A DNA stretch of 64,000 nt from a virus: the IMG/VR virus record IMGVR_UViG_3300042691_032761; one strand, written 5' to 3'. The translations under genes were made by a program, and so were the position numbers. The notes beneath the pieces were generated by a model. That model saw only the letters and a list, made by a program, of their open reading frames with translations, ran no database searches and had not been told where the DNA came from. Shown piece after piece: positions 3,569 to 53,674 of this stretch. How positions within the stretch are numbered: position 1 is the first letter of the stretch; each line of letters starts with the position of its first letter.

Positions 3569-3576
3569 GAGAAGAT

Positions 3577-3960
3577 ATGGCTACAGCACCAGTTTTTTCA
3601 GTAATTCCAAGAGTTGGTTTAGGACAGGTAAGCACCGCGAATACTAATAGAGATGGTACAGGTACTATAGCTACTATTTTAACTGGTGGCTCATCTGGTA
3701 CAAAAATTACAGAGATTGTTGTTGAGGCAACTGGCACAACGACCGCCGGAATGGTTAGAATATATCTAAATGATGGAACTAATACTAGATTATTTGATGA
3801 ATTTCTTGTCATAGCAGTAACTGCCGGTGCCTCAACTGTTGTTTATAGAGGATCAAGAGTTTATGAAAACTTAACTCTTCCAAATAATTCATGGAGTATA
3901 AGAGCCTCAACTCATAACGCTGAAACATTTAATGTGTTTGTATTAGGTGCTGATTTATGA
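3577..3960 (+). CDS. Small virion structural protein (tail-fibre associated, beta-rich)
   Basis: AGGAG RBS upstream; 127 aa; ATGA overlap with the next gene; fibre-cluster context. Confidence 0.6.
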   Translation: MATAPVFSVIPRVGLGQVSTANTNRDGTGTIATILTGGSSGTKITEIVVEATGTTTAGMVRIYLNDGTNTRLFDEFLVIAVTAGASTVVYRGSRVYENLTLPNNSWSIRASTHNAETFNVFVLGADL

Positions 3961-4880
3961 ATGATGGAATTTATTCTATAAATAAATCTACTATTGAAAG
4001 TTTTCTGTTTACAAGAAACAGTAAGCCAGACGGAGCTATTGGTTCTAATGGCACTTATTATTGGTCTATTCCAGAAAAAGCTAAATATATAGAAATAGAA
4101 GCTGTTGCTTCTGGTGGGGGCGGAGGTGGCGGTAGAAGAGGAGCTGCCGGAACCATAAGAGGCGGCGGTGCTGGTGGGGCAACAGGAGGAAGAACAAGAT
4201 ATAATTTTCCAGTATCAGATATAGCAAATTTTGCTACATCAAAAATGTTAGTAATATCTGTTGGCGCTGGCGGAGGTGGTGGTGCGGCTGTTACAACAGA
4301 TGACACAAATGGAAATCCTGGATCAATAGGTAACCCATCTTCTGTTAGACTCTTACAAAATGCTAATTTTTTTCTAGCATACGCTTGGCAAACAACAGCA
4401 TCTACTGGTGGAACTTCTTCTGCTGGAGGAACTGGTGGAAGTCCCGCTTGGGTATCTATGTACCCTGGCGTGGTAGGAGGTGCTGGTTCTAACGGAACCT
4501 CTGCAGCAGGAAGTAACGGTGGCACAGTTGCTCAAAATCCAGGCGCGGGCGGAGGAGGAGTAAACGCATCTAATACAGCAACTGCTGGAGCAACAGCGTA
4601 TGGAACAGAAATTGCGAGAACCGCACCAACAGCCTTGAATCCCGCTGGAGGAAATAATACTGGAGGGAATGGAACAAATGGAACAACAGCAATACCGGGT
4701 GGATATGGTATGGGTGGTGGCGGCGGAGGAGGAAACCCTTCTGGCGCTGGCGGAAGCGGAGGAAACGGAGGTTTTCCGGGTGGAGGCGGAGGCGGCGGCG
4801 GCGGAGGCTTAAATGGTTTTACTGGTGGGGCCGGAGGCAACGGGGCCGATGGCATGGTTCGCATTTATGTGTGGTATTAA
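3957..4880 (+). CDS. Glycine-rich tail fibre tip / adhesin-like protein
   Basis: IEAVASGGGGGGG...GGAGGNGADGMVRIYVWY architecture is typical of phage glycine-rich domains. Confidence 0.75.
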   Translation: MNDGIYSINKSTIESFLFTRNSKPDGAIGSNGTYYWSIPEKAKYIEIEAVASGGGGGGGRRGAAGTIRGGGAGGATGGRTRYNFPVSDIANFATSKMLVISVGAGGGGGAAVTTDDTNGNPGSIGNPSSVRLLQNANFFLAYAWQTTASTGGTSSAGGTGGSPAWVSMYPGVVGGAGSNGTSAAGSNGGTVAQNPGAGGGGVNASNTATAGATAYGTEIARTAPTALNPAGGNNTGGNGTNGTTAIPGGYGMGGGGGGGNPSGAGGSGGNGGFPGGGGGGGGGGLNGFTGGAGGNGADGMVRIYVWY

Positions 4881-12652: not shown

Positions 12653-15600
12653 ATGTCAAGATCTTTTAATTTAACAGCAGAATTAAATTTAAGAGGACCA
12701 TCTAATATTCGGCCGATCATTGCTGATATTAGAAGGCAGTTGACTGGTATAACAGCAAATGTTAATGTAACAGTTAATAATACGACTACTCGTAATGTCA
12801 ATAATCTACAACAGTCTGTTACTAGATTAAACACCGCCCTCACCGCAACAAGAGGAACAGCAACAAATGCTACCGCAGCACTAAATGCTTTTGCAAGAGC
12901 AGCGGCAAATGTTAATAATAATATTGGAAATATACCTCGTAATTTAACTAGAATTAATACAGGTGCTGGTGCAACAACTACTACTCTTAATCAAGTTACT
13001 AGAGCCACTCAGCAAGCAACAGTTGGTTTTGAAGACTTTGGTAGACAATCAGCATTGGCTGTTAGACGTTTTGCTGCTTTTGCAACCGTGACTAGCGTAA
13101 TATATAGATTCTCTAATGCGGTTACTTCTGCAACATCAGAATTCATAGATTTTAATAGAGAACTTGTTAGAGTTGCACAAGTTACTGATTCTAGTTTGTC
13201 AGAACTTAGACCACTAGTCTCTCAGATCACTAATTTGTCTACTAGCTTAGGCGTAGCATCTAAAGATTTGATTCAAGTTTCTAGTACATTAGCACAGGCT
13301 GGTTTAAGTGCAAGAGACACAGAAAAAGCTCTTAGGGCTCTTGCTCTTAGTGCGTTAGCCCCGTCGTTTGATAGCCTAAGCGATACAGTAGAAGGATCTA
13401 TTGCTTTAATGAGACAGTTCGGCATTAGTGCAGGAGATTTAGAGGATGCATTGGGTAGTGTAAATTCTGTTGCTGCAAAGTTCGCAGTTGAAGCAAGCGA
13501 CTTAATTACTGCTATTCAGCGTACCGGCGGTGTGTTTGCAACAGCAAGTAAAGGTGTTAGCGAGGGCAAGGATGCTCTTAATGAGTTTTTAGCTGTATTT
13601 ACAAGTATTCGTGCTACTACTCGTGAAAGCGCAGAAACTATTGCTACAGGCTTAAGAACTATTTTTACTCGTATTCAAAGAGCGGATACTATTGATGCAT
13701 TAAAAGCATTCGGAGTTACTCTTACTGATCTAGAAGGTAAATTCGTTGGTCCATATGAAGCTGTAAGGAGACTAAGCGAAGGATTAAGCAGACTCGATCC
13801 TAGAGATTTAAGATTTTCTCAAATTGTTGAAGAACTTGGCGGTTTTCGACAGATTGGTAAAGTGATTCCACTTATTCAGCAGTTTGCCACAGCACAAGCA
13901 GCGCTAAAGGTTGCTCAACAAGGACAAGGATCATTAGCAAAAGACGCATCAACTGCACAACAAAGTTTAGCAAATCAAATTGCTAAAGTACGAGAAGAAT
14001 TTACTGCTCTTATAAGATCATTAGGAGAAAGTTCCACATTTCAAACATTCGTTAGATTAAGTTTGGATCTTGCTAGCGCATTAATTAGATTGGCTGATAG
14101 TGCTAAAACTGTATTACCAGCATTAACTGCTATTGCTGCATTTAGGGGCGTCTCCGCTCTTACAAGGTTTGGTGCTGGATTTGCTGGTGGACTAAGAAGA
14201 CAAAATAATGGAGGTCCAGTAAGAGGATTTGCTAGGGGAGGAATAGTTCCAGGGGTAGGCAGCGGAGACACTGTTCCAGCTATGTTAGAAGCTGGAGAAT
14301 TTGTAATTAGAAAAAAAGCAGTAGAAAAAATTGGAGCTGGTAATTTACATAAAATAAATAAATATGCCACTGGAGGTAAGGTCAAAGATCTTTTATTAGA
14401 TAAGCCACTACTAAAAGCTAAATATGATACATCTAATATTGAGGATCTATATAGTTTTATAAGGATAGATAGGAGCAAACAAAATAAATTATCACAAAGT
14501 AGAGAAAAATATAGAGATAAAGCAGAACAAATATGGAGTCAAGCATCTTCTGCTTACTCTTCTAAGGGATCTCTTTCTGGTGCTAATACTTTAATAAGAA
14601 GAAAAACTGGAATAAATCTTCCATCTAAATTAAGTAGTAAAGATTTAAATCCAAATAATAAAGATAGTCAAAGACTAAATAAAATTCAAGGATCATTGGC
14701 AGAAAAAGAAGTCTATAATAAAATGGGTAATCTAAAACAATTACCAACAAAAGCTGGTGCTGACTTTACAATTGGTGGATCCGCAATCAACTTTGTTGAA
14801 GTTAAAAATAGACTAGAACCAACATCAGATAATGATTTAAGAGGAAAAGCATTACTAGGTCATCAATACCTTAGTGGAAAACAATATCTTAATAATAAGT
14901 TAGATAAAACTCCTAGACTAACTATTTCTTTATTTTCTAGCAATGAAGGAGATTATAAGAAAAAAAACTTTGGAGGATTAATTCAAAAATTTGCTCTCGG
15001 AGGAAAAGGAAGAGCATTAGGAGCACGAAGTAAATTTAAAGAATTAGACGCAAGCGAATTAGATAAACTTAGTACAGCTGATTTAATTAAGTATGCAAAA
15101 AGACAGGCTCGTGATATTTTTAGTACAGGCGGGGCTGGGATGGCGATGCGTAGCAGATTTATTGAAACCCCAGCAAATAAAATAATTCCAGAATTAGAGC
15201 CTCATTTAACATCATATATGGGGAAAAAAGGATTTTGGAGAGAAGAGATTGCCCCCTTTGGAAGACCATCAAAACAACAAGCAGCGAAAGCATCAAAAAC
15301 AGGAAGAGAAGCAGCTCTTAAAAAACAAGAAGCAAGACAAGCAGACGAAGTTGCGGCCAGAGCACAACAGTGGAAATTAATACGATCAGGATCTAAAATA
15401 GATTCTTATTTACTGTCTTCTTTAAAAGATCCTATTTTATCTGACTACAAGTCAGCCAAAGCTGGGCAGCCGCTAGCAAAAGCTTTTCATGATACTAGAT
15501 TAAGACAAGCTGTTAATCAAGCATTAGATAATTATGATGATTTTGATTATTCTCCAGCAAAGATCGATAAACTAGTTAGTGGAATGGCATCAAAAAGATT

Positions 15601-18600
15601 TGCAATAGGAGGATCTGTAGAAGATAAAGTTCCGGCACTATTAACTCCTGGTGAATTTGTAATTAATAAAAAAGCTGCTAGCAGAATAGGAGCTAGTAGA
15701 CTACATCAATTAAATAGAGCAGATAGAATTAAAGGATTTAATAAGGGCGGAGCTGTTGGAGGAATTCAGAAACTTGCTGCCGGCGGCTTTCCAACGGCTT
15801 TAACACCAGCTATGAGTGGACTATCCGCAAAAGAAACGGCTAGATTAAGTTCTGCTATAATGAATAATGTTGATGCTTTTAATACTTTGGAGGCTCAAGT
15901 TTCTGCTCTTCCAACAGATCAAATGTTGAAAGCTATGAGAATATTTGCCTCTAAACTTGAGGGAGGAGCAACAGATATAGACCGAGCGGCTACAGAAGCG
16001 GCAACATTGGCTCAATCTGGCGGTGGAGGAAGTAGACAGTCTAAAAAAGCAAGAGTAGCAAATTCTGGAGTTACGGTTGGGCCAGCGAATCCAACAACCG
16101 GAATAGTAGAAACAAGACCGACAACTAATCCTGCTGTTAGCGGTTTTGCTGCAAGTCAAGCTAGAATAAATCAAATATCTGCAAACGTTGGACAATATCA
16201 GGCTGGTCAAGATGTTGTTAGTCGTAGAGATACTGTATTAGGTGGTACTACTTCAGGAAATCTATCAAACGCTGGAATGCAACGACTTGCTCAACTAAAC
16301 CAAACAGGAGGAGGATTTGCTCAAAGAGGTCAAGATTATGCTCAAAGAGCACAGGTCTCATCTCAAAAAACTTATTCTGCAAGTTCTTTTGATCCAACAC
16401 AAATTTATCAAGGATTGGCTAAATTAAATCAGGGAATTGCAACAGCAGCTAATGGTTTAACTAGCTTAACTACAGCATCTAAAACTGCTGGTAGTGGTAT
16501 AATGTCTTTAGGCAAAGGAGCATTAGGAGCAGTTGGACGAGGAGCAGGAGGATTAGTTAGTAAAATTGGAGGAGGAGCTTTAAATATGGTGGGACTTGGA
16601 GGATTAGCTTCCAAAGGAGCAGGAGCAGCAATGGGTGGTGGTGGCGGTGGTGGAATGATGGGCATGGTGGCTATGATGGCAGCAGGGCCATTATTGGAAG
16701 CTGCAAGTCAGTCAATGGGAGGAGAAAAAACAGAAGCTGGAAGAAATACTACTGCTGTTGGTGGCGCTATGATGAATTATGCTGCTATTGGAGCAACACT
16801 AGGAAGTGTTATTCCTGGAGTTGGAACCGCTTTGGGAGGAGTTGTTGGAGCAGCGGCTGGTCTTGTTGTGGGTCTTCAGGATGCCACAAAAGCTAATGAA
16901 GAATATGCACAGAGTCAAAGAGAAGCAAAGGCCGCAACAGCATCAGATAAGAGTGGAAAAGCACTAGAAGCATACATGGCCAAACCTGGAGCTGCTCAAA
17001 AACAAGCTTTCATGAGTTCATTTGCTGCCACATCAGAAGCAGAAGCAGCCGTAAAAGCAGGAACAAAAAGACAAACAGCTAGTAGTTTTGGAAAAATGTT
17101 AGGATACCAAGATGAAAATATAAATGATTTTGCAGCAAGAACGGCTAAAACACAAACAGCAGGAGCCGATCAAGCCAAGCAATTTTTAACTGCTGAGATG
17201 ATGAGAACCGGTAAAAATTTTGGTGAAATTAGTAAAACTATGAGTCCAGAACAGTTTAAAACTCTAGCGACTAATATTGCAGAAGCAGATGAAACATATG
17301 CTTATTTCCAGATCCAAAGAGCTAATGAAATTAAAAAACTTAGAGATAGTGGTCGAGGAGCAGAGGCAGATGCTTTACAAGCACAGACCAATGCTGAACA
17401 AGAAAATTTAGCTAAAAATATTGCTGAACGTCAATTAGCAGAAGCATCAGCGGCCGCTCAGGCCAAAGCAGCATCAGAAGCTTCTAAAAAGCTAAATATG
17501 GTAATGATGCAAGCTGTTATGAGTCTTGAAAAATCATTTAATACAATGGAAGAGGTATTAAATAGATCAAGTTTTGAACTTGGACAAATATCTGGCAAAG
17601 CAGATGAAATTTTCAGTGGCAAAGCATCATTAACTAGCTCTACTTTTGCACAAACAAATAATGTTCTTCAAAATCCAAATGCTTACTCTGCGAAAGAAAG
17701 ACAAAATGCTATAAATAGTTCTGCCGCCAGAATGGGACCAGCCGGGGCATTAGTTGGTCGAGTAGCCACATTTGGTGCTCAAGCAACAGAAGAGGCTTCT
17801 AGAAGGGCTAATGCTGTGTTCAATGGTGGAGGAGATAACGAAGCTGTTGGTAATGAGGTTACTAGAAGTTTAACAAATAATATTCTTGCCACGTTTGGTC
17901 CAAATAGTTCCATGTCCCAAACCCTGATTGATGGTGTTAAACGAAGCGTAGACGAGGCAGTAAAAACAGCAAAAGAAAATGGAGAAACGCTCGATCCAAA
18001 TGAATTGGTAGAAAAAGCCACAGGACCACTAAATAGAGCTGCTCAACAAGCGGGTCAATTGTTAATTAAAAATAATGAGAATGTTGCTAAACACTTAGAA
18101 GAGTTGGGTAAGGTTGCTGAAAGAGTAGTAGAAATAGAAAATAGAAGAGTAGAAAGAACAGCAGCATTGGTAGAAATGCAAGCTCAGGGAGGAATATCAA
18201 CCAAAGAAGCACTAGGACAAAAAGTTTCTTTAGACGAAAGAATGAGCGCAAGATTTGCAGGAAGTAGAGCGAGATTAGGAATACAGGACCAAGCTAATTT
18301 TACTCCTCAAAATATTGCCAATATGAGATCTCAAGCTCAAAGAGAGCAAGCTGCATTACAATCACAAATAGATAGAAGATCAAAAGATGTTGGATCAGAC
18401 CCAACTGGCAGAGCAGCGAGAGAGGTTGCTAATTTACAACTAAAACTTGCTAAGGTAAATTCCACAATAGAACAAACTAATAAAGAATTAGAAGATTTAC
18501 CAGGAGCATTAGAAGGAGCTATTAGTGATGTAACATCAGAGATTCAAAATAGAGTAGCAAAATTAGATGCTCAAAAACAAGCATCAGGAGCTTTTGCTGA

Positions 18601-21600
18601 AAAATTAGTAGGAAGCACTCCACAGGAATTGGCTGAATTAGGTAGAACATTTAATTTATTAGATTCTACTCTTAGAGGACAAATAACAACAGTGCAGCAA
18701 TCACAAGTTGCTCAACAAGCATATATTCAATCTATACAAGAAGGAAAAACAGCACAAGAAGCAATGACTGATGCTCAAGCAGCATTTGCTAATGAAAATA
18801 AAAAAGCATTAAGCTTATTTGGAGAATTGACTCAGATCGCCGGAATAGAAGGCCCAGAACTTGACTTAATGAAAGCAGATTTATTAGAAAATTTTGCAAA
18901 AGCACAAGGAGCAGGACTAGAAAATAATCCATTCTTCCAAAGATTGTTAGGAATACTTAGACAAGATCCTGCTCAAAGAGCACAAAACGATCCAGTCTTA
19001 AAAGCTTTACAAGCAAGAATGACAGAACTAAGAGAGCAGCAAGTAGAAGCTGTAAGACTACAAAACGAAGCTGATAGAGGTATTCAAAAACAACTATTAG
19101 AACAAGTTGGTCAAAATATTATAACAAGTTTGGAAGCTACGCAAAGAGCATTTGTTGCAGCAATGAACGATATAGCAATGAGAATGGGAGCGGCTCCTCC
19201 TAGACCAATGCCAGCCAGACCTCGTTCTACCGGAGGATTAATATACGCATCAAATGGACAATATGTTAATTTTCAACCAAAAGGAACAGACACAGTTCCT
19301 GCTATGTTAACTCCGGGCGAATTTGTGGTTAATGCTAAATCCACAAAGGAAAATTTAGGTTTATTAATGTCTATAAATAATAGTCGCGGAGGCAGAATAA
19401 GTTATCTTGCTGATGGCGGAATGTCTGATATTTCCGGAGTCTCATCAAGAACTCAGTCTGCAAAACAAGAAGATATGGCCAGAAGTGGATTAATTAACCA
19501 AAGAGCACTAAGTAATAAAATTGATACCGTTAAAAGCTTATCTAATAATATTAATTCTACCACATCATTTACTAAAGATAATCAAATTCCATCATTAGAT
19601 GGATCAATAGATAACAATCAATCAATTAATAATAAACAATTTAAATCATTATTAATTGGAGTAGATAAAATTTCCAAAGTTATAGAGAATAAGAGTTCTA
19701 AGGGATTATCTAGAGGAGGAGTCGTTTATGCCAGCAGCGGAGGATACATAGGCAACGGCACTCCCGCTATGCTTTCGCCGGGAGAGTTTGTGGTCAACCA
19801 AGCTTCTGCTAAAAAATATGGTGGAGTTTTACAAGCTATAAATAGACAAGATGGTGGAGGCACACCATTTAGCGTTCCTGTATTAGATATGACTAAAGAT
19901 AATAAAGATGGTGTTTTTGTCAGAAGTCGTTACAGAGGACCGAGAGATAAGTTTATGTCCGCTAGAGAAGCAGCATCCGCTGGCATACCGTATAGCACTG
20001 GCACAGGATTTAATACAACTTATTTTGGAAAAAATACAGGAATTACTAAGGCAGACTTTGATGCTTTAACTAAACAAGACGAAAAAGATTTTTCTATATT
20101 CAATCATCCAACATTGGTTTCTCAAGGAAGACAAGCAGCTTTTACTGCTGGCTTGGCAGAAGGAGTGCCGGTCGGTGTCGCTTCATCAACAGCCGGAACC
20201 GCAGCAGCCGCTGGAACAGGAGTTGCGGCTACGGCACTAGGAGTAACAGCACCAGCATGGCTACCAGTGGCTTTAGCAATAACTGCTGCGATTGGAGCAG
20301 GATATGCTATGTCAAAATTGGCAAGAGCAACTTCTAATAAAGCTCTTGCAGCAGGAGGCAGTAATGTTACGATGGATATGATGCAGGAAGATTATCCGTT
20401 ATCTTTTATGGCTGGATCAACACTTGGAGACGCAATTGGTGGAGTAGGCGGGTCTAAATTAGGCTCACAAGCGTTCTCTGGAACATTATCTAAACAACAA
20501 GAGAAATTATTAAGACTAAAAACTATAAAAGAACGTAAAGAAGTTAACGCTGCGATATCTGAATTTAGAGAAAGAGTTGTAGCAAGATGGGAGGATATGT
20601 CTGAATTGGAAGCCTCAGCAATTTCTAGAATGTCAGGGCGTAAAACAGATTTAACTGGTCAAGAAATAATTGATTCAGCTACAGCAAGATTAAAATTATT
20701 AAATCCAAAAGCTAATCCAGATGACTATCTTCCAATAGATTTAGACACAAGGGTTATTAAGGATCCTTTTGGTGATGGTACTATTGGATGGCACAGAAGG
20801 AAAGGTAGAAAAGGAACACCAGAAATACGAACAACAGATCCTCAAGATTTAACTGTTTTACCTCATGAAGCTATTCATGCTATGATTGGAGAAAATCCTC
20901 AAATCCGTGATCTAACGATGGATTTCATCATCAAACATGAAGATTTAATTCAAGAATGGTTATCTAAAACAAAAATGACTGGATATAATTTAGATACTAT
21001 GAAATATGGGACTTCATACAGAATGAGGCAACTTGAGACGAAAATTAATTATACAGATATTCCATCGGTAATTGAAACAGAAAAACTTTTTGCTAGAGCT
21101 TTAAGCGGTAAAGAAACTGCTTCATTAGATTTTATACAAAACACAAAAGGTGGATTAGAATATATTGATAGATTATTAAAACAACAGTCTTCCAGAAGTT
21201 TTTTCACAGATGAGTCAGAAATAATAAAATGGGTTGATAAAAAATGGGATAGATCTAGTTTAGATTCCCTCAAAAAAACCATAGATGATTTTAGAAATAG
21301 AGATAAAAAACTTTATGAAGATATAATGACACATATGGGACCTGGAGGGTATCCCGGAGTTGGAACAAAAAGACTTCCAAAAGATTTGTTAGAATCTTTG
21401 AACGAAATATTTTCTCCACATGCCTCCAGAGCTGGGCCAGAAGAATTTTTAGCAACATTAGCTCAAGATGATTTAACAGGAAATGCTGCTGGTCAACAGT
21501 TGCAAAGACTCGTACAAAGAGAAATATTTGAAAAAGCCGATCAAATAAAATATAAATTTATGGGCTTTCCTGAACGACCCATTGTTGGAGTACCAGAAGG

Positions 21601-23434
21601 ATTAGAAGGATTTAATAATGGTGGTATGGTATATGCTTCAGAAGGCAAATACATAAATTTCAAACCAAAGGGCACGGACACTGTTCCCGCGATGCTAACT
21701 CCAGGAGAGTTTGTTGTTAATGCTAAAGCCACTAAAGATAATTTATCGACATTGCAAGCTATTAATACTGGATACTATGAAAGAGGTGGAATTGCTGGTG
21801 TTGATCCTAGTCCAAGTAATTTTGCAAGAAGTATTGTTGGCATGAGAGGAGCCAGAATTAACCAATTAGCACAACAGGGTAAATATTATGTTTATGAGGG
21901 TAATACAGCAATATTAGATGATGATAATGGTAGATTTCCTAATAGATATGCGTCTGTTAGCGGAGCCAGAAATATACAAGAAGCAATTGAGCTTGCTAAA
22001 CAGAAATATGAATGGTTCGAAGGAGGCGGATATTCCCTTAAAGAAGCCTCTGCGATTGAAAGAGGACGTATGGGTTCGACAACATTGGCAGATAAAATAA
22101 TAGACGAATTACAAGATCAGATAATTGAGGGTGGTCCAAGATTATTTACCTCAACAGGATTTAATCAAAAAAATAAACAAGATAAAATTAATGAAATTAT
22201 AAAAAAAATAGATGAACAAGGCGCAAATCCTCAAGAATTATATAGGAAAGCCACCAAAAGACAAAATTATTTAAGACAAGTTGAAAATAATACTAGACTT
22301 GGTCTTAATGTAATAGCAGGATCTGATAGAACAATAAATCTCGGAGGAAGAAGAGAACTATTAGCAACAAAGCTTCTAGAATTACAAAGAGATTATGCTC
22401 AAAAAGAATTAAGTCTTATACCTAGAGTTTGGGATGATATAGCCACAATGAAAGGATATCAAGGCTTACCAAGAGATTACACAACATCTTTTAATGCTCT
22501 TAATCCTAGTAGTCTTCCTGGTCCTGAATATTTTAGTTCTGGCGGCATGTCAATGCCTAAAAAATTTGATAAAACAACCGATCCGGCAGATCGTATTTTG
22601 CAAAGAGCTAATGAAGCAAGATTAAACAACTTTTCGAATATATACGAGTCCCTTTTAGTGAAAAAATATGGAAAATCTATCAAGCCATTTCGTAATACTG
22701 ATGTTTTAGAAAATCTAAGACAATATCAAGAATTTGATTCTCTTTCTGATGAAGAACTAAGAAGTCTAGAAACACAACATATACAATCAAAAATAAATAA
22801 ACAATCAAGATTAAATAAATTCAACTCAGGAGGAATAGTATACGCAAACAAAGGAACTTTAGTTCCTTATCAGCCCAAAGGCACAGATACTGTTCCAGCA
22901 ATGTTAACTCCAGGAGAGTTTGTAATAAATAGACAAGCATCTCAAAAACATCTTGGATTATTACAATCTATCAACAATGGTAACTATTCAAGAGGAGGTC
23001 CTGTTTACCTTGCCGAAGGAACACAAGGAACACAAGCGTTTGATGCTAACATGACCTATTTATCGGATATCTTGAAAAAAGGAGCAGATACTCTAAATAC
23101 AGCATTTATAGAAGCTGTTAGAAAATTAAATAATATTGCTGATAATTCTCCTCAAATAAGACAGGGTACATCAAACGGTGTATCTAATAATCAGAGCAAT
23201 CCTTTGGCTAATATAGAAGCATTGGGCAATAGATTAGACCAGTTTATAGAACAACTAAAAAATGCGGTGCCTTCAACAGTAACTCTAGAGGTTCCAACAG
23301 CTATTCCAGTTAATGTTAATATAAATGGAGCAAGCATTCTTAAAGATGTTCTTGGTGGACCAATAGGAAATATCGTACAAAAAGCTATCAAAGATGCATT
23401 TGATGCAAAAAGTAGACAAAATGAAGGGTATTAA
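12653..23434 (+). CDS. Tape measure protein (TP901-family core) with multiple inserted domains
   Basis: The N-terminal ~500 aa have a TP901-type TMP core (DFNRELVRVAQVT...LAQAG...VAAKFAVEASDL...IATGLRTIF), with long Ala/Gln-rich helical regions. Six PAMLxxGEFV repeats; canonical position after the tail tube and chaperone genes. Confidence 0.88.
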   Translation: MSRSFNLTAELNLRGPSNIRPIIADIRRQLTGITANVNVTVNNTTTRNVNNLQQSVTRLNTALTATRGTATNATAALNAFARAAANVNNNIGNIPRNLTRINTGAGATTTTLNQVTRATQQATVGFEDFGRQSALAVRRFAAFATVTSVIYRFSNAVTSATSEFIDFNRELVRVAQVTDSSLSELRPLVSQITNLSTSLGVASKDLIQVSSTLAQAGLSARDTEKALRALALSALAPSFDSLSDTVEGSIALMRQFGISAGDLEDALGSVNSVAAKFAVEASDLITAIQRTGGVFATASKGVSEGKDALNEFLAVFTSIRATTRESAETIATGLRTIFTRIQRADTIDALKAFGVTLTDLEGKFVGPYEAVRRLSEGLSRLDPRDLRFSQIVEELGGFRQIGKVIPLIQQFATAQAALKVAQQGQGSLAKDASTAQQSLANQIAKVREEFTALIRSLGESSTFQTFVRLSLDLASALIRLADSAKTVLPALTAIAAFRGVSALTRFGAGFAGGLRRQNNGGPVRGFARGGIVPGVGSGDTVPAMLEAGEFVIRKKAVEKIGAGNLHKINKYATGGKVKDLLLDKPLLKAKYDTSNIEDLYSFIRIDRSKQNKLSQSREKYRDKAEQIWSQASSAYSSKGSLSGANTLIRRKTGINLPSKLSSKDLNPNNKDSQRLNKIQGSLAEKEVYNKMGNLKQLPTKAGADFTIGGSAINFVEVKNRLEPTSDNDLRGKALLGHQYLSGKQYLNNKLDKTPRLTISLFSSNEGDYKKKNFGGLIQKFALGGKGRALGARSKFKELDASELDKLSTADLIKYAKRQARDIFSTGGAGMAMRSRFIETPANKIIPELEPHLTSYMGKKGFWREEIAPFGRPSKQQAAKASKTGREAALKKQEARQADEVAARAQQWKLIRSGSKIDSYLLSSLKDPILSDYKSAKAGQPLAKAFHDTRLRQAVNQALDNYDDFDYSPAKIDKLVSGMASKRFAIGGSVEDKVPALLTPGEFVINKKAASRIGASRLHQLNRADRIKGFNKGGAVGGIQKLAAGGFPTALTPAMSGLSAKETARLSSAIMNNVDAFNTLEAQVSALPTDQMLKAMRIFASKLEGGATDIDRAATEAATLAQSGGGGSRQSKKARVANSGVTVGPANPTTGIVETRPTTNPAVSGFAASQARINQISANVGQYQAGQDVVSRRDTVLGGTTSGNLSNAGMQRLAQLNQTGGGFAQRGQDYAQRAQVSSQKTYSASSFDPTQIYQGLAKLNQGIATAANGLTSLTTASKTAGSGIMSLGKGALGAVGRGAGGLVSKIGGGALNMVGLGGLASKGAGAAMGGGGGGGMMGMVAMMAAGPLLEAASQSMGGEKTEAGRNTTAVGGAMMNYAAIGATLGSVIPGVGTALGGVVGAAAGLVVGLQDATKANEEYAQSQREAKAATASDKSGKALEAYMAKPGAAQKQAFMSSFAATSEAEAAVKAGTKRQTASSFGKMLGYQDENINDFAARTAKTQTAGADQAKQFLTAEMMRTGKNFGEISKTMSPEQFKTLATNIAEADETYAYFQIQRANEIKKLRDSGRGAEADALQAQTNAEQENLAKNIAERQLAEASAAAQAKAASEASKKLNMVMMQAVMSLEKSFNTMEEVLNRSSFELGQISGKADEIFSGKASLTSSTFAQTNNVLQNPNAYSAKERQNAINSSAARMGPAGALVGRVATFGAQATEEASRRANAVFNGGGDNEAVGNEVTRSLTNNILATFGPNSSMSQTLIDGVKRSVDEAVKTAKENGETLDPNELVEKATGPLNRAAQQAGQLLIKNNENVAKHLEELGKVAERVVEIENRRVERTAALVEMQAQGGISTKEALGQKVSLDERMSARFAGSRARLGIQDQANFTPQNIANMRSQAQREQAALQSQIDRRSKDVGSDPTGRAAREVANLQLKLAKVNSTIEQTNKELEDLPGALEGAISDVTSEIQNRVAKLDAQKQASGAFAEKLVGSTPQELAELGRTFNLLDSTLRGQITTVQQSQVAQQAYIQSIQEGKTAQEAMTDAQAAFANENKKALSLFGELTQIAGIEGPELDLMKADLLENFAKAQGAGLENNPFFQRLLGILRQDPAQRAQNDPVLKALQARMTELREQQVEAVRLQNEADRGIQKQLLEQVGQNIITSLEATQRAFVAAMNDIAMRMGAAPPRPMPARPRSTGGLIYASNGQYVNFQPKGTDTVPAMLTPGEFVVNAKSTKENLGLLMSINNSRGGRISYLADGGMSDISGVSSRTQSAKQEDMARSGLINQRALSNKIDTVKSLSNNINSTTSFTKDNQIPSLDGSIDNNQSINNKQFKSLLIGVDKISKVIENKSSKGLSRGGVVYASSGGYIGNGTPAMLSPGEFVVNQASAKKYGGVLQAINRQDGGGTPFSVPVLDMTKDNKDGVFVRSRYRGPRDKFMSAREAASAGIPYSTGTGFNTTYFGKNTGITKADFDALTKQDEKDFSIFNHPTLVSQGRQAAFTAGLAEGVPVGVASSTAGTAAAAGTGVAATALGVTAPAWLPVALAITAAIGAGYAMSKLARATSNKALAAGGSNVTMDMMQEDYPLSFMAGSTLGDAIGGVGGSKLGSQAFSGTLSKQQEKLLRLKTIKERKEVNAAISEFRERVVARWEDMSELEASAISRMSGRKTDLTGQEIIDSATARLKLLNPKANPDDYLPIDLDTRVIKDPFGDGTIGWHRRKGRKGTPEIRTTDPQDLTVLPHEAIHAMIGENPQIRDLTMDFIIKHEDLIQEWLSKTKMTGYNLDTMKYGTSYRMRQLETKINYTDIPSVIETEKLFARALSGKETASLDFIQNTKGGLEYIDRLLKQQSSRSFFTDESEIIKWVDKKWDRSSLDSLKKTIDDFRNRDKKLYEDIMTHMGPGGYPGVGTKRLPKDLLESLNEIFSPHASRAGPEEFLATLAQDDLTGNAAGQQLQRLVQREIFEKADQIKYKFMGFPERPIVGVPEGLEGFNNGGMVYASEGKYINFKPKGTDTVPAMLTPGEFVVNAKATKDNLSTLQAINTGYYERGGIAGVDPSPSNFARSIVGMRGARINQLAQQGKYYVYEGNTAILDDDNGRFPNRYASVSGARNIQEAIELAKQKYEWFEGGGYSLKEASAIERGRMGSTTLADKIIDELQDQIIEGGPRLFTSTGFNQKNKQDKINEIIKKIDEQGANPQELYRKATKRQNYLRQVENNTRLGLNVIAGSDRTINLGGRRELLATKLLELQRDYAQKELSLIPRVWDDIATMKGYQGLPRDYTTSFNALNPSSLPGPEYFSSGGMSMPKKFDKTTDPADRILQRANEARLNNFSNIYESLLVKKYGKSIKPFRNTDVLENLRQYQEFDSLSDEELRSLETQHIQSKINKQSRLNKFNSGGIVYANKGTLVPYQPKGTDTVPAMLTPGEFVINRQASQKHLGLLQSINNGNYSRGGPVYLAEGTQGTQAFDANMTYLSDILKKGADTLNTAFIEAVRKLNNIADNSPQIRQGTSNGVSNNQSNPLANIEALGNRLDQFIEQLKNAVPSTVTLEVPTAIPVNVNINGASILKDVLGGPIGNIVQKAIKDAFDAKSRQNEGY
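14228..23010 (+). repeat. Six dispersed copies of the (D)TVPAMLTPGEFVVN module within the TMP
   Basis: Copies begin near 14267, 15623, 19289, 19757, 21677 and 22886. They are conserved at protein level with many synonymous differences. Confidence 0.9.
23177..23191 (+). promoter_or_regulatory. Candidate late-promoter motif GGTGTAT
   Basis: GGTGTATCTAATAAT lies in the TMP 3' end, 260 nt before the next gene, and closely resembles GGTGTATTCAATAAT at 5661. Confidence 0.4.
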
Positions 23435-29321: not shown

Positions 29322-32300
29322 ATGGTTTGTTCGACAATTTTAAATATACCAGGAAAACAAGGAGGAGATACAAAAACATATAATATTTGTTGTACTAAAG
29401 TGTATAGTCAAACACTATTTTTAGGAGGTAGCGTAAAAGCATTCAATGCGTCTTTAGCATGGGGATCAGAAGCGAGTAAATTAACTGTTGAAATTAGTGT
29501 TGACAAATGCGACTACCCTGTTCAAAAAGATCTAAATGGAAATATTGTATTAGTAATGCCAGAAGCAAATAGCTATACTGTCAATAGATTAAATAATACA
29601 TTTCAAAAAGATGAAAACGGTAACTCTCTTATTCCAGCAAAAGTTTATTATAAACCCTACTATGATACAACTAAAAAAAGTGGATATTTAGCATCATACT
29701 ATTGGACTGGTTCTGATCCAGGATTTTATGGAGAAATATTTGATGCATATGGAAATGTAGATGTTGCAAAGAGTGTGGATATTGTTGGTTGCGCAGTATA
29801 TTTTAAATATGATGATTTTGAGTTTTATGGCATTGTTAAAGGATGGCAACGACAAGGAGGATCAAGTGGCACAATAACTTATTCCATAGATATAGAATCT
29901 CCATCATTTTTATTAACTCAAACTCAAATGATTTTGTCAGATTATAATGGAGCTATTTTTTCTAAAACCAATGGATCTGATGGTTCTCAATTTACAAAAT
30001 TTGGCTTTCCAAAAACAAATGCCGGAACCTACACCGGAGCCATATCTGAACAAAATATTCCAAACCTAATAAATGTATTTGGATATCTCGAAGATTCTGC
30101 AGCAATCACCTCTGCAACACCGGCTTATAGGTATGGTCGCTCTGAAAGAAATGATCAAGGAATATCAGCTTTATATATTATGCAAGGAATTTATGATCTA
30201 CTAAATAGTACTAAGCCAGTTACATCTAATAAACAAAAAATTCTCAGATACTCACCATATGGAAGAATTGTTGGGAAAGCTCCAAAATTTAAATCATCAT
30301 TAAATGATGTATTTGTATCATTGAATGACTTAGAGCAAAAACCATATTCTTTTGGTTTGCTAAAGCCTAGTTTTTATACCAAATATACTGATCAAAATTT
30401 AGATTTATATGTGATGCCATATTCTATTAATTTTAATGATATATTAAATAATGGAATTATTCCATCATATTATCGTATATCCGACCAAAAGATGGATTTG
30501 CTTCAATTTTTCACAACCGTTGCTGAAAATACTGGACAAAATATATTCATTTCAATGGAATTAGATATAACAGAAGAGGGAACTTTTCCAGTTATTAAAA
30601 TTAATAGTATTAGTAAACTCATAAATAGTCCAGATGGTATAGTTCAAGAATTTATTGATGATATAGTATCTAAAGGAGTATCTGTTACCTCCTACTCCAA
30701 AGGAGAAGAATTAAATAATAACGATCCAATTAGAACCATGGTTGTTGGAGGAAAACAGCAAAGACTTTACCAGGTGTCAAACTTAAAATATGCTTTAAAG
30801 CAAAGTACTTTGAGATATAGTGCTTATGTGAACAAATTTGTAAAGATAGATCATTTCAATGCTTTAGCAGGATCTGAGAGTCAACAAAGATATAGACTAT
30901 TTGACCCTGTTAATATAAGAAATCCAGATCTTTATAGATCACAGGATAAAACTCCAGCATTACCATTCGGCAGAGTAGAACTCTATTCTGCAGCATTTAA
31001 AGAGAAAAAAAGTTTACTAGGAGGATATGTTCAGAATAAAGGAAACTATTTACCAGAAATAAGTTTCGTTAAAAACGAATTAGATCCAACAAAAAGACAA
31101 TCTAAAAAAGGTGGATGGGTATATGATTCTTATATTTATGATGCAATATGTCCCTACTTCGGCAACGACGAATTAACAGGATATGTAAGGCCAGTCTTTC
31201 AGCACTACAATAATATGATAAATGATATATCCGCTTCTTCTATTAGCGCAGACGGAAATGGCGGAGGAGTAGGATTTTTAGTTGGATTTACATTGGCAGA
31301 AATAGGTGCGGCAATAGGAGTAAATTACTCCCAAGCAAATTTTAGAGTTAGAATAAGTGAAACAGAGATTAGAGCAGCGATGAGTGGTTATGATGCTTAT
31401 GTTGCTTTTTTGACCGGTATGCTTGAGGATGGAGTTGTTCTTAATTGTTTTAATTCTGTGGAAAAACCAAATTTTCCTGTAGATATATGGAAACATGTTC
31501 TTGGTCCAATAATCATGCCAGTAAAGGTTGCTGCTGGAGCAGCTTCTTATGATAGTTTTTCTTCTCCTTTTTTAAAGGGTCTGGTTAGCGGATTAACAAG
31601 AGACTTTAATGTCGCGGCAACAACCGGGGTATCAGGTAAAGATGGAAATGCTAGCGTAGCATTGGCTGCTCAATCATCTGTTGCTACCGATCCAAGACTA
31701 TATGATATCCTTGTAAAATTACATGGTTTTTTTAAAAATATTGGTGATACTTATTATGGTAAACAATATATGATAAATGTTCCGTCGCCACAAGTTTGGA
31801 CGGATGTACAATATTTTAAAGATACACAAGGAAATAATCTACAAATACCGATAGGGGTAGATTCTAATAACAAGCCAATATATCTATTGTCTGGTTCAAA
31901 AAAAACATATTATTCATTTGAACCAACAGATTTTGCATGGGAAGAGCCAGGAAATTATATAGATGATTGTTTGATGGTTGGAAATGCTATTCTGGATCCG
32001 TTGACCAAAGATGATGGATCAATAGAACCAATATTAGGATTTAATAATACCACACAATATAATTATGGAAGAGAACTAGCTGGTAAATTGTATGCTTTTA
32101 CATATAGTTTAAGTGCAAATGCTCAGGCTATTAATTTATGGAAATGGGATATGGCAAGAGCATACGGATTAACTTACAGTGGAACCGAGCAGATGTGGGA
32201 GCCAGCACTATCTCTTAAAGACTCTGGAGCGGTTGTTGTTCCTCACCCTCTTGGTTCAAATAATCCTTCTTTTGATCCTTATGGAACAAAAATTCTAGAC

Positions 32301-34919
32301 GAAAATATATCTAAAATTTATGTAAAAGCTAAAGTAGAAAAAGAATTTGCAAAATATATTGGGGCAGATGGAAATATTTATACTAAAATTATAATGTCGT
32401 TAAATAATCCTGTGTTCCTCAATGCCCTAACACCCGACACCTTATCTGTAACAAATGCTGTGGCTGAGTATTTTATTTCCGATTATACTGGAGCGTCATT
32501 AGTAACAGCAATACGAGCCTTGGGAAATTCTTTATTTATTAAACCAACGCCACTAGAAACCTCAGTAACTGCAAAAAATGCTGCTAGTCAAAATAAAGCA
32601 AATAAACAATTTAATAACTTATCTATACATCCAAAAGCAGCGATGCCGTTTTTCGCTGGCGTACCAATTGTGGACAATACCTCCGTTTACGGACCTTGGG
32701 TATCTGCTCCAGATTTATTGAAAGATGTTATCTTTCCAAGTGATGCTGGAACTCTTCAAATTAAAAAAATAGAAAATTTAATAGGTGGAGCAAAAGTAGA
32801 AATTGAATCTGATTTTGTTCCATGGAATTATGGCGGAATGAGAATATTAGACGAGGTGGCTTTATTAAAAGTTGGACAGGATAATGATTATTTACAAAAA
32901 TTAGAGTCCGGATCTTTAACTATTCATGGAGTCCCATTTATTAATTTGGGCAATGAATTAAAAACTGCTGGAAATTTGTTTAGAGGACCAACAGTCAGCA
33001 ATATACAGTGCCAAATTAGCGAAAGCGGACCTTCCACAACCTACACATTCAGAACATTCACAAAAAAATTCACATTGTTCAATAAAGAAAATTCTGACAG
33101 AATCAAACAGGCTGCTCAGGCTACACAAAAAATGTCTAGGGAGTTTAGAAAAGAATTTAATGCAGTTTCTGAGATACTAAGAACAATCGCCACCTCGCCA
33201 ACTGTTAATAGCTCTCCAAGTTTTGGTGCTGATTCTATCTTAAGATCATATAGTCCTGTTGATGTTTTGGTTGGATATTCTGCTCCTTTCTGGAGTAGAA
33301 AGGCCGAGCCAGCTAATCTTATGGGATTTTTTCCAAATCCATTAAAAACAACAAATCAATGGTCTGGCAATTCTATAAAACAGATGACCACTGTTAATAT
33401 ACAGGAAAGAAGAGAAGTAGTTCAAGAATTTGAACAACTATATAGTACCAAGTCTTTTATGAGTATGGATGGATTATTACACCCAGTTTCTTTTTATCCA
33501 ACGATGCTATCTTCTACTACTCCATATAAGCCATATTTGACCACATCTGATGGTAAAATTTCAGGATGTCCAATATGCAGAGGAACAAAAACTTATATAT
33601 GGGAAGATAAAACTTTCTATTGCGATTATTGCTCAAATGTCTCTGCTGGACAAGAACCAAATTCTTCAACATCAAACGGAAGATTACCTCCATATATATT
33701 ATCAAACCAAGCAGATGAAGATATAATTAAGGATCCACAAGCTTTAGAAAAACTATTACAATCGACGGTAATGTCAAAAAAAATTGATTATGTAAATTTA
33801 AATCCAATTATAATGCCCGTTGGCGAACTTAGAAATAAATTTGCTCAGTCTAATGATTATACCTCTCATCACATAGACATAGTCGGAAGAAGTGTTGTTC
33901 CTCCTGTAGGATCTCTATCTATAAATTCTAACTTGAATATTGATCAACAACCAATGGTAGATCCTCTTACTGGAGAACTAACAGGATTAGAATATTTTGA
34001 TCAAAATAGAATGGTTTCTGATGGAGATTGGAATTCTGTGGCTTTTGATATGGCTGACGGTAGAGTAGCTAAAAGTGCAAATTCAGTACAAGTTGGAGGA
34101 AAATCTTATGAATATTTTCAAAATAATCATAGATTCTTAGCCTTAAGGGGCCCTCTTGTTATGGCTGGTTGGGGATATGATGTTGATGGAATGCCAGTGC
34201 CAAATGCTTCTGGGGAACCAAAAGAATTAAATGCTGGAGGATACCCAAAACGCATAAGAGACAAAAAAGATCAGACAGGTGGTTTTCAAGATTATGCAGG
34301 AACGATATTAGGTAAAAATCAAACATGGGATAATGATAAAGAAGAATGGACTGATCCAATTAAAGAAAGTGAATTTTATAAAGGCTGGGGATTAAGACCA
34401 GATAGCTGGCCTGTTGGTCCAGTAGACTTAAGATGGGATGAAAATAGAAAAGTTTGGACAGCAGCCCAACCATACAAATTAGTAGATGTTCAATTAGAAG
34501 ATGATTTGGTACCGCCATTTCCTGCTAGAGCATTTTTTAATTCTATGGATAAAACCTCGCCATTACCAAATAATTTAAGACGCATGATATTTGTAAGAGA
34601 TTCTACAGAGAGCTATGGGGCTCCAAGAGGAGCAAAAATAACATGCTATTATGATGAGGCTTCTGGATTTTATGAGCCAATATCAAAACAAAATATAGTA
34701 GCGATGGGCACCATAAGTAGTAATGGAACCGCTAAGATTTTGAATGCTTATGCCAAAGGATTTGATCCTATTACTGGAGAACCAGAAACTCCGGAACAAA
34801 TTACGGTAGAATTTAATAACTATCTTAACTTTGATATCAGTCAAAGTAATCAAGCAGGAATATTTACGTTTATAAAAAATGAATGGATTTTAACAAGTAG
34901 CAATACTTGTGGAGGATAA
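29322..34919 (+). CDS. Large tail tip / baseplate hub-like protein
   Basis: 1865 aa. N-terminal FLGGSVKAFNASLAWG...FYGIVKGWQR resembles hub beta-barrels; internal CPIC...CDYC zinc finger; post-TMP position. Confidence 0.55.
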   Translation: MVCSTILNIPGKQGGDTKTYNICCTKVYSQTLFLGGSVKAFNASLAWGSEASKLTVEISVDKCDYPVQKDLNGNIVLVMPEANSYTVNRLNNTFQKDENGNSLIPAKVYYKPYYDTTKKSGYLASYYWTGSDPGFYGEIFDAYGNVDVAKSVDIVGCAVYFKYDDFEFYGIVKGWQRQGGSSGTITYSIDIESPSFLLTQTQMILSDYNGAIFSKTNGSDGSQFTKFGFPKTNAGTYTGAISEQNIPNLINVFGYLEDSAAITSATPAYRYGRSERNDQGISALYIMQGIYDLLNSTKPVTSNKQKILRYSPYGRIVGKAPKFKSSLNDVFVSLNDLEQKPYSFGLLKPSFYTKYTDQNLDLYVMPYSINFNDILNNGIIPSYYRISDQKMDLLQFFTTVAENTGQNIFISMELDITEEGTFPVIKINSISKLINSPDGIVQEFIDDIVSKGVSVTSYSKGEELNNNDPIRTMVVGGKQQRLYQVSNLKYALKQSTLRYSAYVNKFVKIDHFNALAGSESQQRYRLFDPVNIRNPDLYRSQDKTPALPFGRVELYSAAFKEKKSLLGGYVQNKGNYLPEISFVKNELDPTKRQSKKGGWVYDSYIYDAICPYFGNDELTGYVRPVFQHYNNMINDISASSISADGNGGGVGFLVGFTLAEIGAAIGVNYSQANFRVRISETEIRAAMSGYDAYVAFLTGMLEDGVVLNCFNSVEKPNFPVDIWKHVLGPIIMPVKVAAGAASYDSFSSPFLKGLVSGLTRDFNVAATTGVSGKDGNASVALAAQSSVATDPRLYDILVKLHGFFKNIGDTYYGKQYMINVPSPQVWTDVQYFKDTQGNNLQIPIGVDSNNKPIYLLSGSKKTYYSFEPTDFAWEEPGNYIDDCLMVGNAILDPLTKDDGSIEPILGFNNTTQYNYGRELAGKLYAFTYSLSANAQAINLWKWDMARAYGLTYSGTEQMWEPALSLKDSGAVVVPHPLGSNNPSFDPYGTKILDENISKIYVKAKVEKEFAKYIGADGNIYTKIIMSLNNPVFLNALTPDTLSVTNAVAEYFISDYTGASLVTAIRALGNSLFIKPTPLETSVTAKNAASQNKANKQFNNLSIHPKAAMPFFAGVPIVDNTSVYGPWVSAPDLLKDVIFPSDAGTLQIKKIENLIGGAKVEIESDFVPWNYGGMRILDEVALLKVGQDNDYLQKLESGSLTIHGVPFINLGNELKTAGNLFRGPTVSNIQCQISESGPSTTYTFRTFTKKFTLFNKENSDRIKQAAQATQKMSREFRKEFNAVSEILRTIATSPTVNSSPSFGADSILRSYSPVDVLVGYSAPFWSRKAEPANLMGFFPNPLKTTNQWSGNSIKQMTTVNIQERREVVQEFEQLYSTKSFMSMDGLLHPVSFYPTMLSSTTPYKPYLTTSDGKISGCPICRGTKTYIWEDKTFYCDYCSNVSAGQEPNSSTSNGRLPPYILSNQADEDIIKDPQALEKLLQSTVMSKKIDYVNLNPIIMPVGELRNKFAQSNDYTSHHIDIVGRSVVPPVGSLSINSNLNIDQQPMVDPLTGELTGLEYFDQNRMVSDGDWNSVAFDMADGRVAKSANSVQVGGKSYEYFQNNHRFLALRGPLVMAGWGYDVDGMPVPNASGEPKELNAGGYPKRIRDKKDQTGGFQDYAGTILGKNQTWDNDKEEWTDPIKESEFYKGWGLRPDSWPVGPVDLRWDENRKVWTAAQPYKLVDVQLEDDLVPPFPARAFFNSMDKTSPLPNNLRRMIFVRDSTESYGAPRGAKITCYYDEASGFYEPISKQNIVAMGTISSNGTAKILNAYAKGFDPITGEPETPEQITVEFNNYLNFDISQSNQAGIFTFIKNEWILTSSNTCGG

Positions 34920-34920
34920 A

Positions 34921-45106: not shown

Positions 45107-45808
45107 TTATCTCCAACTAGACTCATAACCTAATAGACTTTTTGGTATAGAATCCAGATTTTGTTGATGTGTGGATAAAGACCTAATTACATTGACAGCA
45201 TCATTATGTGTCATAGCATATATATTATCAGATGATATGTCCAATGAGGCAAGTAGTGATTTGACATTGATATTTAATCTTTGAGAAATACTATCTATAA
45301 AACTAATCTGATTGCTACTAATTTTATTGACCGATTCATGATCAGGATTATCGTCTATAGAATTGGCCAATTCTTCTGCGGCCACTACTTTCCTCAGTCT
45401 TAATGCTCTTCTAAGTGCTCTTCCTTCGGCTCTGGTTTCAGCAACGGCCACAGGATGGTTTCTATAAACCTTGTCGCAATTACCCCAATAAACGTCCGCA
45501 GCGCCTGTGACTGACCTGTGTTTAATTTCCTCGGGTGTTGACAGATCATTTAAAACATAATCAATCCTGTACACTACAGTTGCTCTTTTTTCGTTTTCTG
45601 GAGAAGGAGCCTGAACAACATCCGTACTAATATGAGTAACCGTGCAATTCATCGCTTTTTCAAAAATTCTTCTAAGTCCATCTGTTGTTGGATTTCCGTC
45701 TATTTTTTCATCATCGCTCAATAAACCAAGAACATAGTCATTCCATCCTAGATCATTAGGTGTAACTTTTTCTTCTTGAGTGATTTTTACTTCGTCCTTT
45801 TTAGCCAT
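45107..45808 (-). CDS. Putative single-strand annealing protein (Rad52/Sak/ERF-like)
   Basis: VTGAAD...VAVAETRAEGRALRRAL motif and C-terminal ISSNQISFI..I helical domain; AGGAG RBS favours ATG 45808. Confidence 0.5.
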   Translation of the reverse strand: MAKKDEVKITQEEKVTPNDLGWNDYVLGLLSDDEKIDGNPTTDGLRRIFEKAMNCTVTHISTDVVQAPSPENEKRATVVYRIDYVLNDLSTPEEIKHRSVTGAADVYWGNCDKVYRNHPVAVAETRAEGRALRRALRLRKVVAAEELANSIDDNPDHESVNKISSNQISFIDSISQRLNINVKSLLASLDISSDNIYAMTHNDAVNVIRSLSTHQQNLDSIPKSLLGYESSWR

Positions 45809-45810
45809 GA

Positions 45811-53646: not shown

Positions 53647-53674
53647 ATTATACCTTGAGCCCAACGCAAGTCAA
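53647..53674 (-). promoter_or_regulatory. Near-consensus sigma70 promoter for ssb
   Basis: Minus strand TTGACT-N16-TATAAT, 45 nt upstream of the ssb ATG, with an AAGGGG RBS. Confidence 0.75.

Follow-up and report, generated by a model that had tools for sequence, protein, structure and literature searches.

What purpose do the many short glycine-glycine motifs in a giant phage tail protein serve? The window, that is, the whole 64,000-nucleotide stretch of viral DNA analysed here (IMG/VR virus record IMGVR_UViG_3300042691_032761), carries a single open reading frame (ORF) for a protein of 3,593 amino acids (aa). A sequence-only reading of this DNA had counted about 17 xxxGG motifs in it and had suggested that the consensus [FYL]-[ANS]-x-G-G could be a protease recognition site freeing cargo domains, or else a packaging or export signal. 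Based on its family matches, the protein is identified as a phage tail tape measure protein, with PF10145 (PhageMin_Tail) at aa 191-394 (80.5 bits against a cut-off of 33.2, E 1.9e-22) and the PHROG tape-measure families 4211, 28, 167 and 1533 matching its N-terminal ~800 residues. It has no close match among cultured phages, where the best tblastn identity of the N-terminal core is 22–26%. The most probable answer, with a probability of roughly 0.6, is that the GG motifs form the conserved edges of a recurring tape-measure joint module of ~60-80 aa, of the lambda gpH type, which brackets exchangeable cassettes and which, by analogy with lambda, would also mark a maturation zone.

The motifs are real, strongly non-random and, within the window, specific to the tape measure. 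All 14 strings quoted in the sequence-only reading are present at their places in ORF 12653-23434 (+), and the GG motifs range from nucleotide (nt) 14210 to nt 22994. Against a baseline of 1000 shuffles of the tape measure protein sequence, [FYL][ANS]xGG occurs 15 times where 1.1 +/- 1.1 would be expected (maximum 5), and GG-x(5-10)-GG occurs 12 times compared with 1.4 in the shuffles. A scan of other virion proteins for the motif had been proposed as a check; on the ORFs of the window, it gave at most one [FYL][ANS]xGG match in every ORF other than the tape measure. The description of the motifs as often paired is likewise accurate, and the pairing has a simple origin: a GG element lies on each side of a PAML/GEFV core in six modules because these are six copies of one module with GG on either side of its core.

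The module spans ~60-80 aa in its six copies and follows the layout [FY]-[ANS]-x-GG-x-[VI] ... DTVPAMLTPGEFV ... helix ... [FY]-[ANS]-x-GG-x-V. Its upstream part consists of one or two [FY/KR]-[ANS]-x-G-G-x-[VI] elements, followed by the core D-T-V-P-A-M-L-T-P-G-E-F-V, a short helix ending in L-x-x-[IM]-N, and a downstream [FY]-[ANS]-x-G-G-x-V element that is sometimes doubled. When the six window copies are aligned, the positions P, A, L, G, E, F, V, L, N and GG are invariant. In a set of 758 copies taken from the 150 relatives, the GG of the downstream element is retained in 95–96%, on a par with the core, while the next Val reaches 76% and the upstream GG is present in ~68%. Since the GG is conserved as well as the core, the glycines are integral positions of a larger unit; each module holds 2–4 motifs a few residues apart, and these co-vary with the core as one unit. 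Across 151 family proteins, the first module begins directly after the tape-measure core (median start aa 511), and the end of the last one lies 139 aa (median) from the C-terminus. The window protein follows this arrangement, as module 6, its last, ends 131 aa from the C-terminus. Its features are collected in Table 1, which also lists two lone GG elements without the core; for the element at aa 771-784, comparison with the upstream portion of the module profile gave no significant match.

Table 1. The tape measure gene of the window, with its joint modules, lone GG elements, variable cassette and C-terminal tail
Feature	Residues (aa)	Window positions (nt)	Strand	Details
Tape measure protein gene (P0001)		12653..23434	+	Single ORF, 3,593 aa
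Joint module 1	505-585	14165..14407	+	QNNGG / FARGG, PAML-GEFV core, helix, YATGG; 89-98 bits (HMM)
Lone GG element without PAML core	771-784	14963..15004	+	KNFGG...FALGG
Joint module 2	975-1050	15575..15802	+	FAIGG, core, FNKGG / AVGG / LAAGG
Joint module 3	2185-2262	19205..19438	+	RSTGG...YASNG, core, NSRGG...LADGG; 110 bits
Joint module 4	2346-2410	19688..19882	+	LSRGG...ASSGG, core, RQDGGG
Variable cassette between modules 4 and 5		19883..21592	+	Spans aa ~2410-2980; includes a hydrophobic Ala/Gly stretch and HExxH (aa 2738, nt 20864)
Joint module 5	2981-3055	21593..21817	+	FNNGG...YASEG, core, YYERGG; 111 bits
Lone GG element	3293-3298	22529..22546	+	YFSSGG
Joint module 6	3384-3462	22802..23038	+	FNSGG...YANKG, core, YSRGG...YLAEG; 115 bits
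C-terminal tail after module 6	3463-3593	23039..23431	+	Conserved in 46-120 of 150 relatives

The module is homologous to a segment of the lambda tape measure. A narrow profile of the six window copies gave nothing credible among the sequences of solved structures, and a broader profile, built from 121 copies from the window and 80 viral contigs, was needed to reach them. Three proteins were matched, namely lambda gpH, Douge gp16 and JBD30 gp46. The homologous segment of lambda gpH covers aa 725-793 (8iyk_H, E 1.1e-6) and reads FATGG ... GEFVFTKEATSRIG ... YATGG, its FATGG lying at F733–G737. Like the window protein, gpH possesses [FY]AxGG flanks, a GEFV core and a helix, and its module lies just before the hub-binding C-terminus, 60 aa from the end (131 aa for module 6). 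The window protein thus shares with the lambda gpH type both the profile similarity and a copy located 40–150 residues before the C-terminus. However, gpH has one copy, no cassettes and neither the D-T-V-P nor the L-x-x-I-N positions, whereas the window protein is four times longer and contains six copies plus the two core-less GG elements. Moreover, the window protein fails the whole-region model of the lambda C-terminus, NCBIfam TIGR01541 (tape_meas_lam_C), to which module 1 aligns with 11 bits (E 0.17, cut-off 104.75) over model positions 272-304 of 332 only. The invariant Asn, Asp and Glu residues of the module were also considered as an autocleavage or isopeptide triad, a candidate that was dropped as lambda lacks the Asn and Asp positions.

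The other two matches are the mycobacteriophage Douge gp16 (PDB 8ZDO), with two internal modules at aa 960-1029 and 1411-1460 (E 4.7e-13), and the Pseudomonas phage JBD30 gp46 (PDB 8RK3), with one module near the C-terminus (E 0.018). Compared to the window protein, both have fewer copies and no reported evidence of exchangeable cassettes. In the maps of lambda, Douge and JBD30, the resolved part of the tape measure is limited to the last 30–42 residues (33–42 for Douge and JBD30), which are bound to the hub; the module cannot be seen. An AlphaFold2 model of module 1 from the 121-sequence alignment reached a mean predicted local distance difference test score (pLDDT) of 62.6, with a single helix at residues 50–65 and the GG elements in low-confidence coil. 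Owing to this low confidence together with the absence from the cryo-EM maps, the module fits a flexible or partner-dependent element. The sequence-only reading had held that motifs inside predicted folded domains would speak against processing; on the weak evidence of low-confidence coil, they appear to lie outside such domains. By comparison with lambda, Douge and JBD30, the C-terminal tail of the window protein (aa 3463-3593) appears to be placed like the hub-bound C-terminus of gpHC, the C-terminal product of gpH.

The module is also very widespread. With the profile of the six window copies, 16,374 cluster representatives were retrieved from 1.84 billion proteins (E <= 1e-3); the top matches are 3,000–7,900 aa long and contain up to 11 module copies each. 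Searches by tblastn located it in annotated tape measures from cultured but unrelated phages, whose hosts include Gordonia, Mycobacterium, Nodularia, Burkholderia, Ralstonia, Rhizobium and others; among them are Gordonia phages with 2–3 copies. It is recognisable at 30–60% amino-acid identity, and the hosts range from Actinobacteria to cyanobacteria and E. coli. Additionally, module 1 matches 20 different PHROG families, mostly of tape measures, and often in the C-terminal part of the profile. Since T4-like cyanophages carry the module in a hub-region virion protein, it is not restricted to siphophage tape measures. These cyanophage proteins are encoded at L083:4171-7023 (Synechococcus phage S-SCSM1) and L084:5044-7023 (SynMITS9220M01), by a gene that directly follows a gp51-like hub assembly gene and precedes the annotated tape measure. 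Pfam gave no match to the module in the 3,593-aa protein, and none of the families matched is a family of its own. The literature searches returned no description of the module and no mapped tape-measure cleavage other than those of lambda and T5.

Comparison with the relatives shows that the motifs mark junctions between exchangeable blocks: the related giant proteins retain the modules and exchange the intervening sequence. BLAST alignments of at least 130 aa to the 150 relatives yielded 764 end points, and the modules, which account for 12.6% of the protein length, yet hold 47% of them; the claim that the motifs sit at block junctions is thereby borne out for the modules. More than 100 relatives cover the N-terminal core and each module, whereas only 0–15 cover the segments between (aa 580-975, 1050-1400, 2410-2975 and 3056-3380), so that the number falls from >100 to <15 at the module edges. 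For instance, ~122 of the 150 relatives share everything up to module 1, after which coverage falls; it climbs from ~30 to >100 at module 2 and is down to 0–10 directly after module 4. The variable cassette between modules 4 and 5 is common to almost no relative. The closest relative, P0022 (73–76% identical), lacks the whole aa ~2400-2985 cassette, and its module 4 is joined directly to module 5. This absence looks like an insertion or deletion resulting from recombination between modules.

The junctions had been said to include two without the PAML module, FALGG and FSSGG, and here the outcome is divided. Local breaks do occur at both in a few relatives: around the FALGG element, four alignments stop at aa 784 and one begins at 774, and around YFSSGG three stop at 3298/3299 and three begin at 3294-3300. 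Together, however, the two lone motifs hold 1.7% of the end points for 1.4% of the length, which is not above chance. Between modules 2 and 3, at window ~16520-16910 (aa ~1290-1420), there is a hydrophobic stretch rich in Gly, Ala and Met and including a run of seven glycines, which bears a likeness to hydrophobic stretches that insert into membranes, as described for other tape measures.

The exchange of cassettes exactly at the modules, as well as the missing aa ~2400-2985 cassette of P0022, would also be expected if the motifs were conserved mainly as recombination anchors at the DNA level (traces left by the shuffling of cassettes), or else to signal export or packaging, and played no part in the mature protein. 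This explanation is very improbable. The module is recognisable at amino-acid identities far beyond DNA similarity, and it is kept in single-copy tape measures that have nothing to shuffle, such as those of lambda and JBD30. Furthermore, no other virion protein of the window carries it, contrary to what a general signal would lead one to expect, and nothing was found in support of the proposed packaging or export role. A comparable arrangement is known from polymorphic toxins, in which a short motif (VENN in CdiA, DPxGL in Rhs) splits a constant scaffold from exchangeable cassettes; that motif is a recombination joint and, in Rhs, also a site of autoproteolysis. The sequences are unrelated, and the toxins have one junction per protein, whereas the tape-measure module occurs in series and has no evident catalytic residues.

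The mechanism favoured here builds on this architecture. Ordinary tape measures such as lambda gpH carry a single module, 40–150 residues before the hub-binding C-terminus; the giant window protein has six, besides the two core-less GG elements, and these copies frame the segments exchanged among related phages. The module would act as a flexible joint that does not fold autonomously, allowing globular or hydrophobic cassettes to be spliced into a helical ruler. By analogy with lambda, it may also mark the zone in which the ruler matures by proteolysis. Cleavage would then most probably take place near the last module, freeing a gpHC-like piece, and possibly at internal modules too. The glycines are more likely to serve as turns or hinges, or to belong to a surface for recognition, than to form the scissile bond.

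The link to maturation comes from the biochemistry of lambda. There, gpH is converted to gpH* and a ~14-kDa gpHC by a cut in a glycine-rich region, the protease being not identified (PMC12617516). The fragment masses place the cut zone at about aa 690-720, at or just upstream of the module. The computed start of the 14-kDa C-terminal piece, ~aa 715-720, lies 5–25 residues before the module or its first FATGG, and within gel error of the module itself. Since lambda gpH carries the same module and is cut beside its copy, the suspected connection with processing is reasonable, and cleavage of the window protein is plausible by this analogy. Moreover, the processing of tape measures is said to be common (PMC1796659). 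What does not stand is the motif as a free-standing recognition site, for it is part of a conserved module.

A stricter version of the protease idea takes [FYL]-[ANS]-x-G-G itself as the site, at which a phage or host protease or the HExxH domain would cut all or most of the ~17 motifs and thereby turn the protein into a polyprotein that frees its cargo. Such a scheme would agree with the strong, tape-measure-specific enrichment, with the position of the motifs at cassette junctions (two core-less ones included) and with the lambda cut in a Gly-rich zone beside the homologous module. Gly-rich processing sites are known elsewhere as well: in Tal of TP901-1 and Tuc2009, a glycine-rich motif between the structural and enzymatic parts is proteolytically processed (PMC11409707). 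Tal is, however, a protein other than the tape measure, and its motif in TP901-1 is a plain Gly/Ser/Asn run (NGGGNSGGGD) with neither an aromatic-x-x-GG element nor a GEFV core. Further encouragement comes from JAB peptidases, which cut after the C-terminal glycines of ubiquitin-like domains; the JAB domain in lambda gpK is predicted to cut gpI in this manner (PMC1779556), and that it might also cut gpH beside FATGG is speculation. Nevertheless, cleavage at each motif is unlikely as every module holds 2–4 of them, co-varying with the core, and a simple cut at the GG dipeptide is not to be expected.

The search for an enzyme gives this scheme little help. No protease domain scored above threshold in a Pfam scan of 41 window proteins. 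The HExxH domain, proposed earlier as a possible protease for the motifs, cannot be the general one because P0022 keeps its modules without the HExxH cassette and lambda gpH has no such domain. The motif itself (HEAIH, aa 2738) falls in no Pfam family, with a weak ESM Atlas lead to LPD23 (large polyvalent protein domain; 18% of one cluster). The ORFs flanking the tape measure gave no Pfam match to a JAB or NlpC-P60 peptidase, a negative of little weight because these proteins are so divergent; the neighbouring tail genes match almost no family, so that a divergent peptidase could be missed. The sole protease-like signal in the window is a sub-threshold match to Peptidase_S49 at 45107-45814 (-) (E 0.0083, 16.5 bits against a cut-off of 24.9), on the opposite strand and outside the structural block. 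A double-glycine leader served by a C39 peptidase transporter was rejected as well, given that the motifs are internal and repeated and that the Pfam scan of the 41 window proteins showed no C39 or ABC family.

An exactly mapped cut is available for one tape measure only, pb2 of phage T5, which is cleaved after R1127 (PMC10038345). The C-terminal piece is removed in the course of tail assembly and remains in the tip, and by eye the new N-terminus, AEGGMMYPG...GEHGTEVV, resembles the GG-x-V-Y...GEFVV of the module. Membership of pb2 in the family was rejected, as no profile match appeared even at E 1000 and hhalign gave a probability of 0.2%; by sequence, pb2 is to be regarded as an analogue and not a relative. 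Its cut (R1127|AEGG) precedes the GG rather than following it, which, for a protein outside the family, also counts against the GG motif as the site. The cleavage of JBD30 at residue 1066 is a proposal made by its authors by analogy with T5 and was not measured. Taken with the 2–4 co-varying motifs per module, the lack of a protease domain among the scanned proteins and the HExxH cassette missing from a relative that keeps its modules, cutting at all or most motifs is improbable.

A bolder possibility is that the module serves as a portable processing signal for thousands of tape measures, lambda gpH among them. A glycine-directed tail-assembly peptidase (e.g. a gpK-like JAB enzyme), a host protease or the module itself would cut beside it, and the giant rulers would be polyproteins that release several effectors into the host ahead of the DNA. 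This idea, too, is a doubtful one.

At the other extreme, the modules could be purely structural joints without any cleavage. They would anchor or register the ruler in the tube through the wall, the hub or a chaperone, or re-nucleate the oligomer around a cassette, and the protein would stay intact in the virion and after ejection. Conservation at the protein level across thousands of unrelated tape measures agrees with this, as does the constant distance to the hub-binding C-terminus. Another giant tape measure with an enzymatic passenger that enters the host, the 5,002-aa gp96 of Thermus phage P23-45, is fused to a virion RNA polymerase proposed to be active while fused (PMC10770324); gp96 was checked for the module and has no copy. 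Additionally, gene fission at the modules is not observed: no module in 80 related loci coincides with an ORF start, and for the 95 modules preceded by a stop within their locus, the closest such stop is 279 aa away. However, lambda, the one member with biochemical data, is cut beside its module, and a module that is invisible in three cryo-EM maps is a poor fit to a fixed anchor. Joints that are never cut are therefore rather unlikely, though they deserve to be taken seriously.

Several of these observations also weigh against a joint module that marks a maturation zone. The cut site of lambda is placed from gel masses only, and biochemical cleavage data concern lambda alone among the carriers and no multi-module tape measure. 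Cargo need not be cleaved off, given that the P23-45 passenger is proposed to work in its fused state, and the related loci offer, in their sequences, no gene-fission evidence that the pieces work separately. Low AlphaFold confidence is no proof of disorder either, and the module may fold only in a trimer or hexamer or on a partner.

The rest of the window offers some further observations. Upstream, a gene at 1019-3568 (+) encodes an 849-aa protein with Mtd_N (PF18454, E 3.4e-12) and N-terminal matches to tail-fibre PHROGs, which is probably a receptor-binding fibre. Mtd is the target of a diversity-generating retroelement in Bordetella phage BPP-1. Among the upstream structural genes, 3957-4880 (+) encodes a 307-aa protein with Gly_rich_2 (PF21722, E 9.7e-9). 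Downstream of the tape measure, two very large ORFs of 1,865 and 2,233 aa (29322-41610, +) have zero Pfam matches. The segments 50400-53166 (-) and 53671-55236 (-) hold two genes for group-1 glycosyltransferases, one of which matches GT4-conflict weakly, and, adjoining them, the gene for a 521-aa protein. Of DNA polymerase III alpha, this protein retains the finger, HhH and OB parts alone, as though DnaE were split or truncated.

The joint module bears on a question of tail assembly that dates from the 1970s, namely the manner and place of the gpH cut in lambda, as well as on the protease involved (PMC12617516). The Gly-rich zone in which lambda gpH is cut now belongs to a sharply defined and very widespread module, with thousands of cluster representatives, which offers concrete lambda residues to mutate (FATGG, GEFV and YATGG). 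In practice, the module can further serve as a marker when tape measures are annotated and cassette borders located. For the giant rulers, the function of the module decides whether one huge multi-domain protein is injected into the host or a set of separate effectors.

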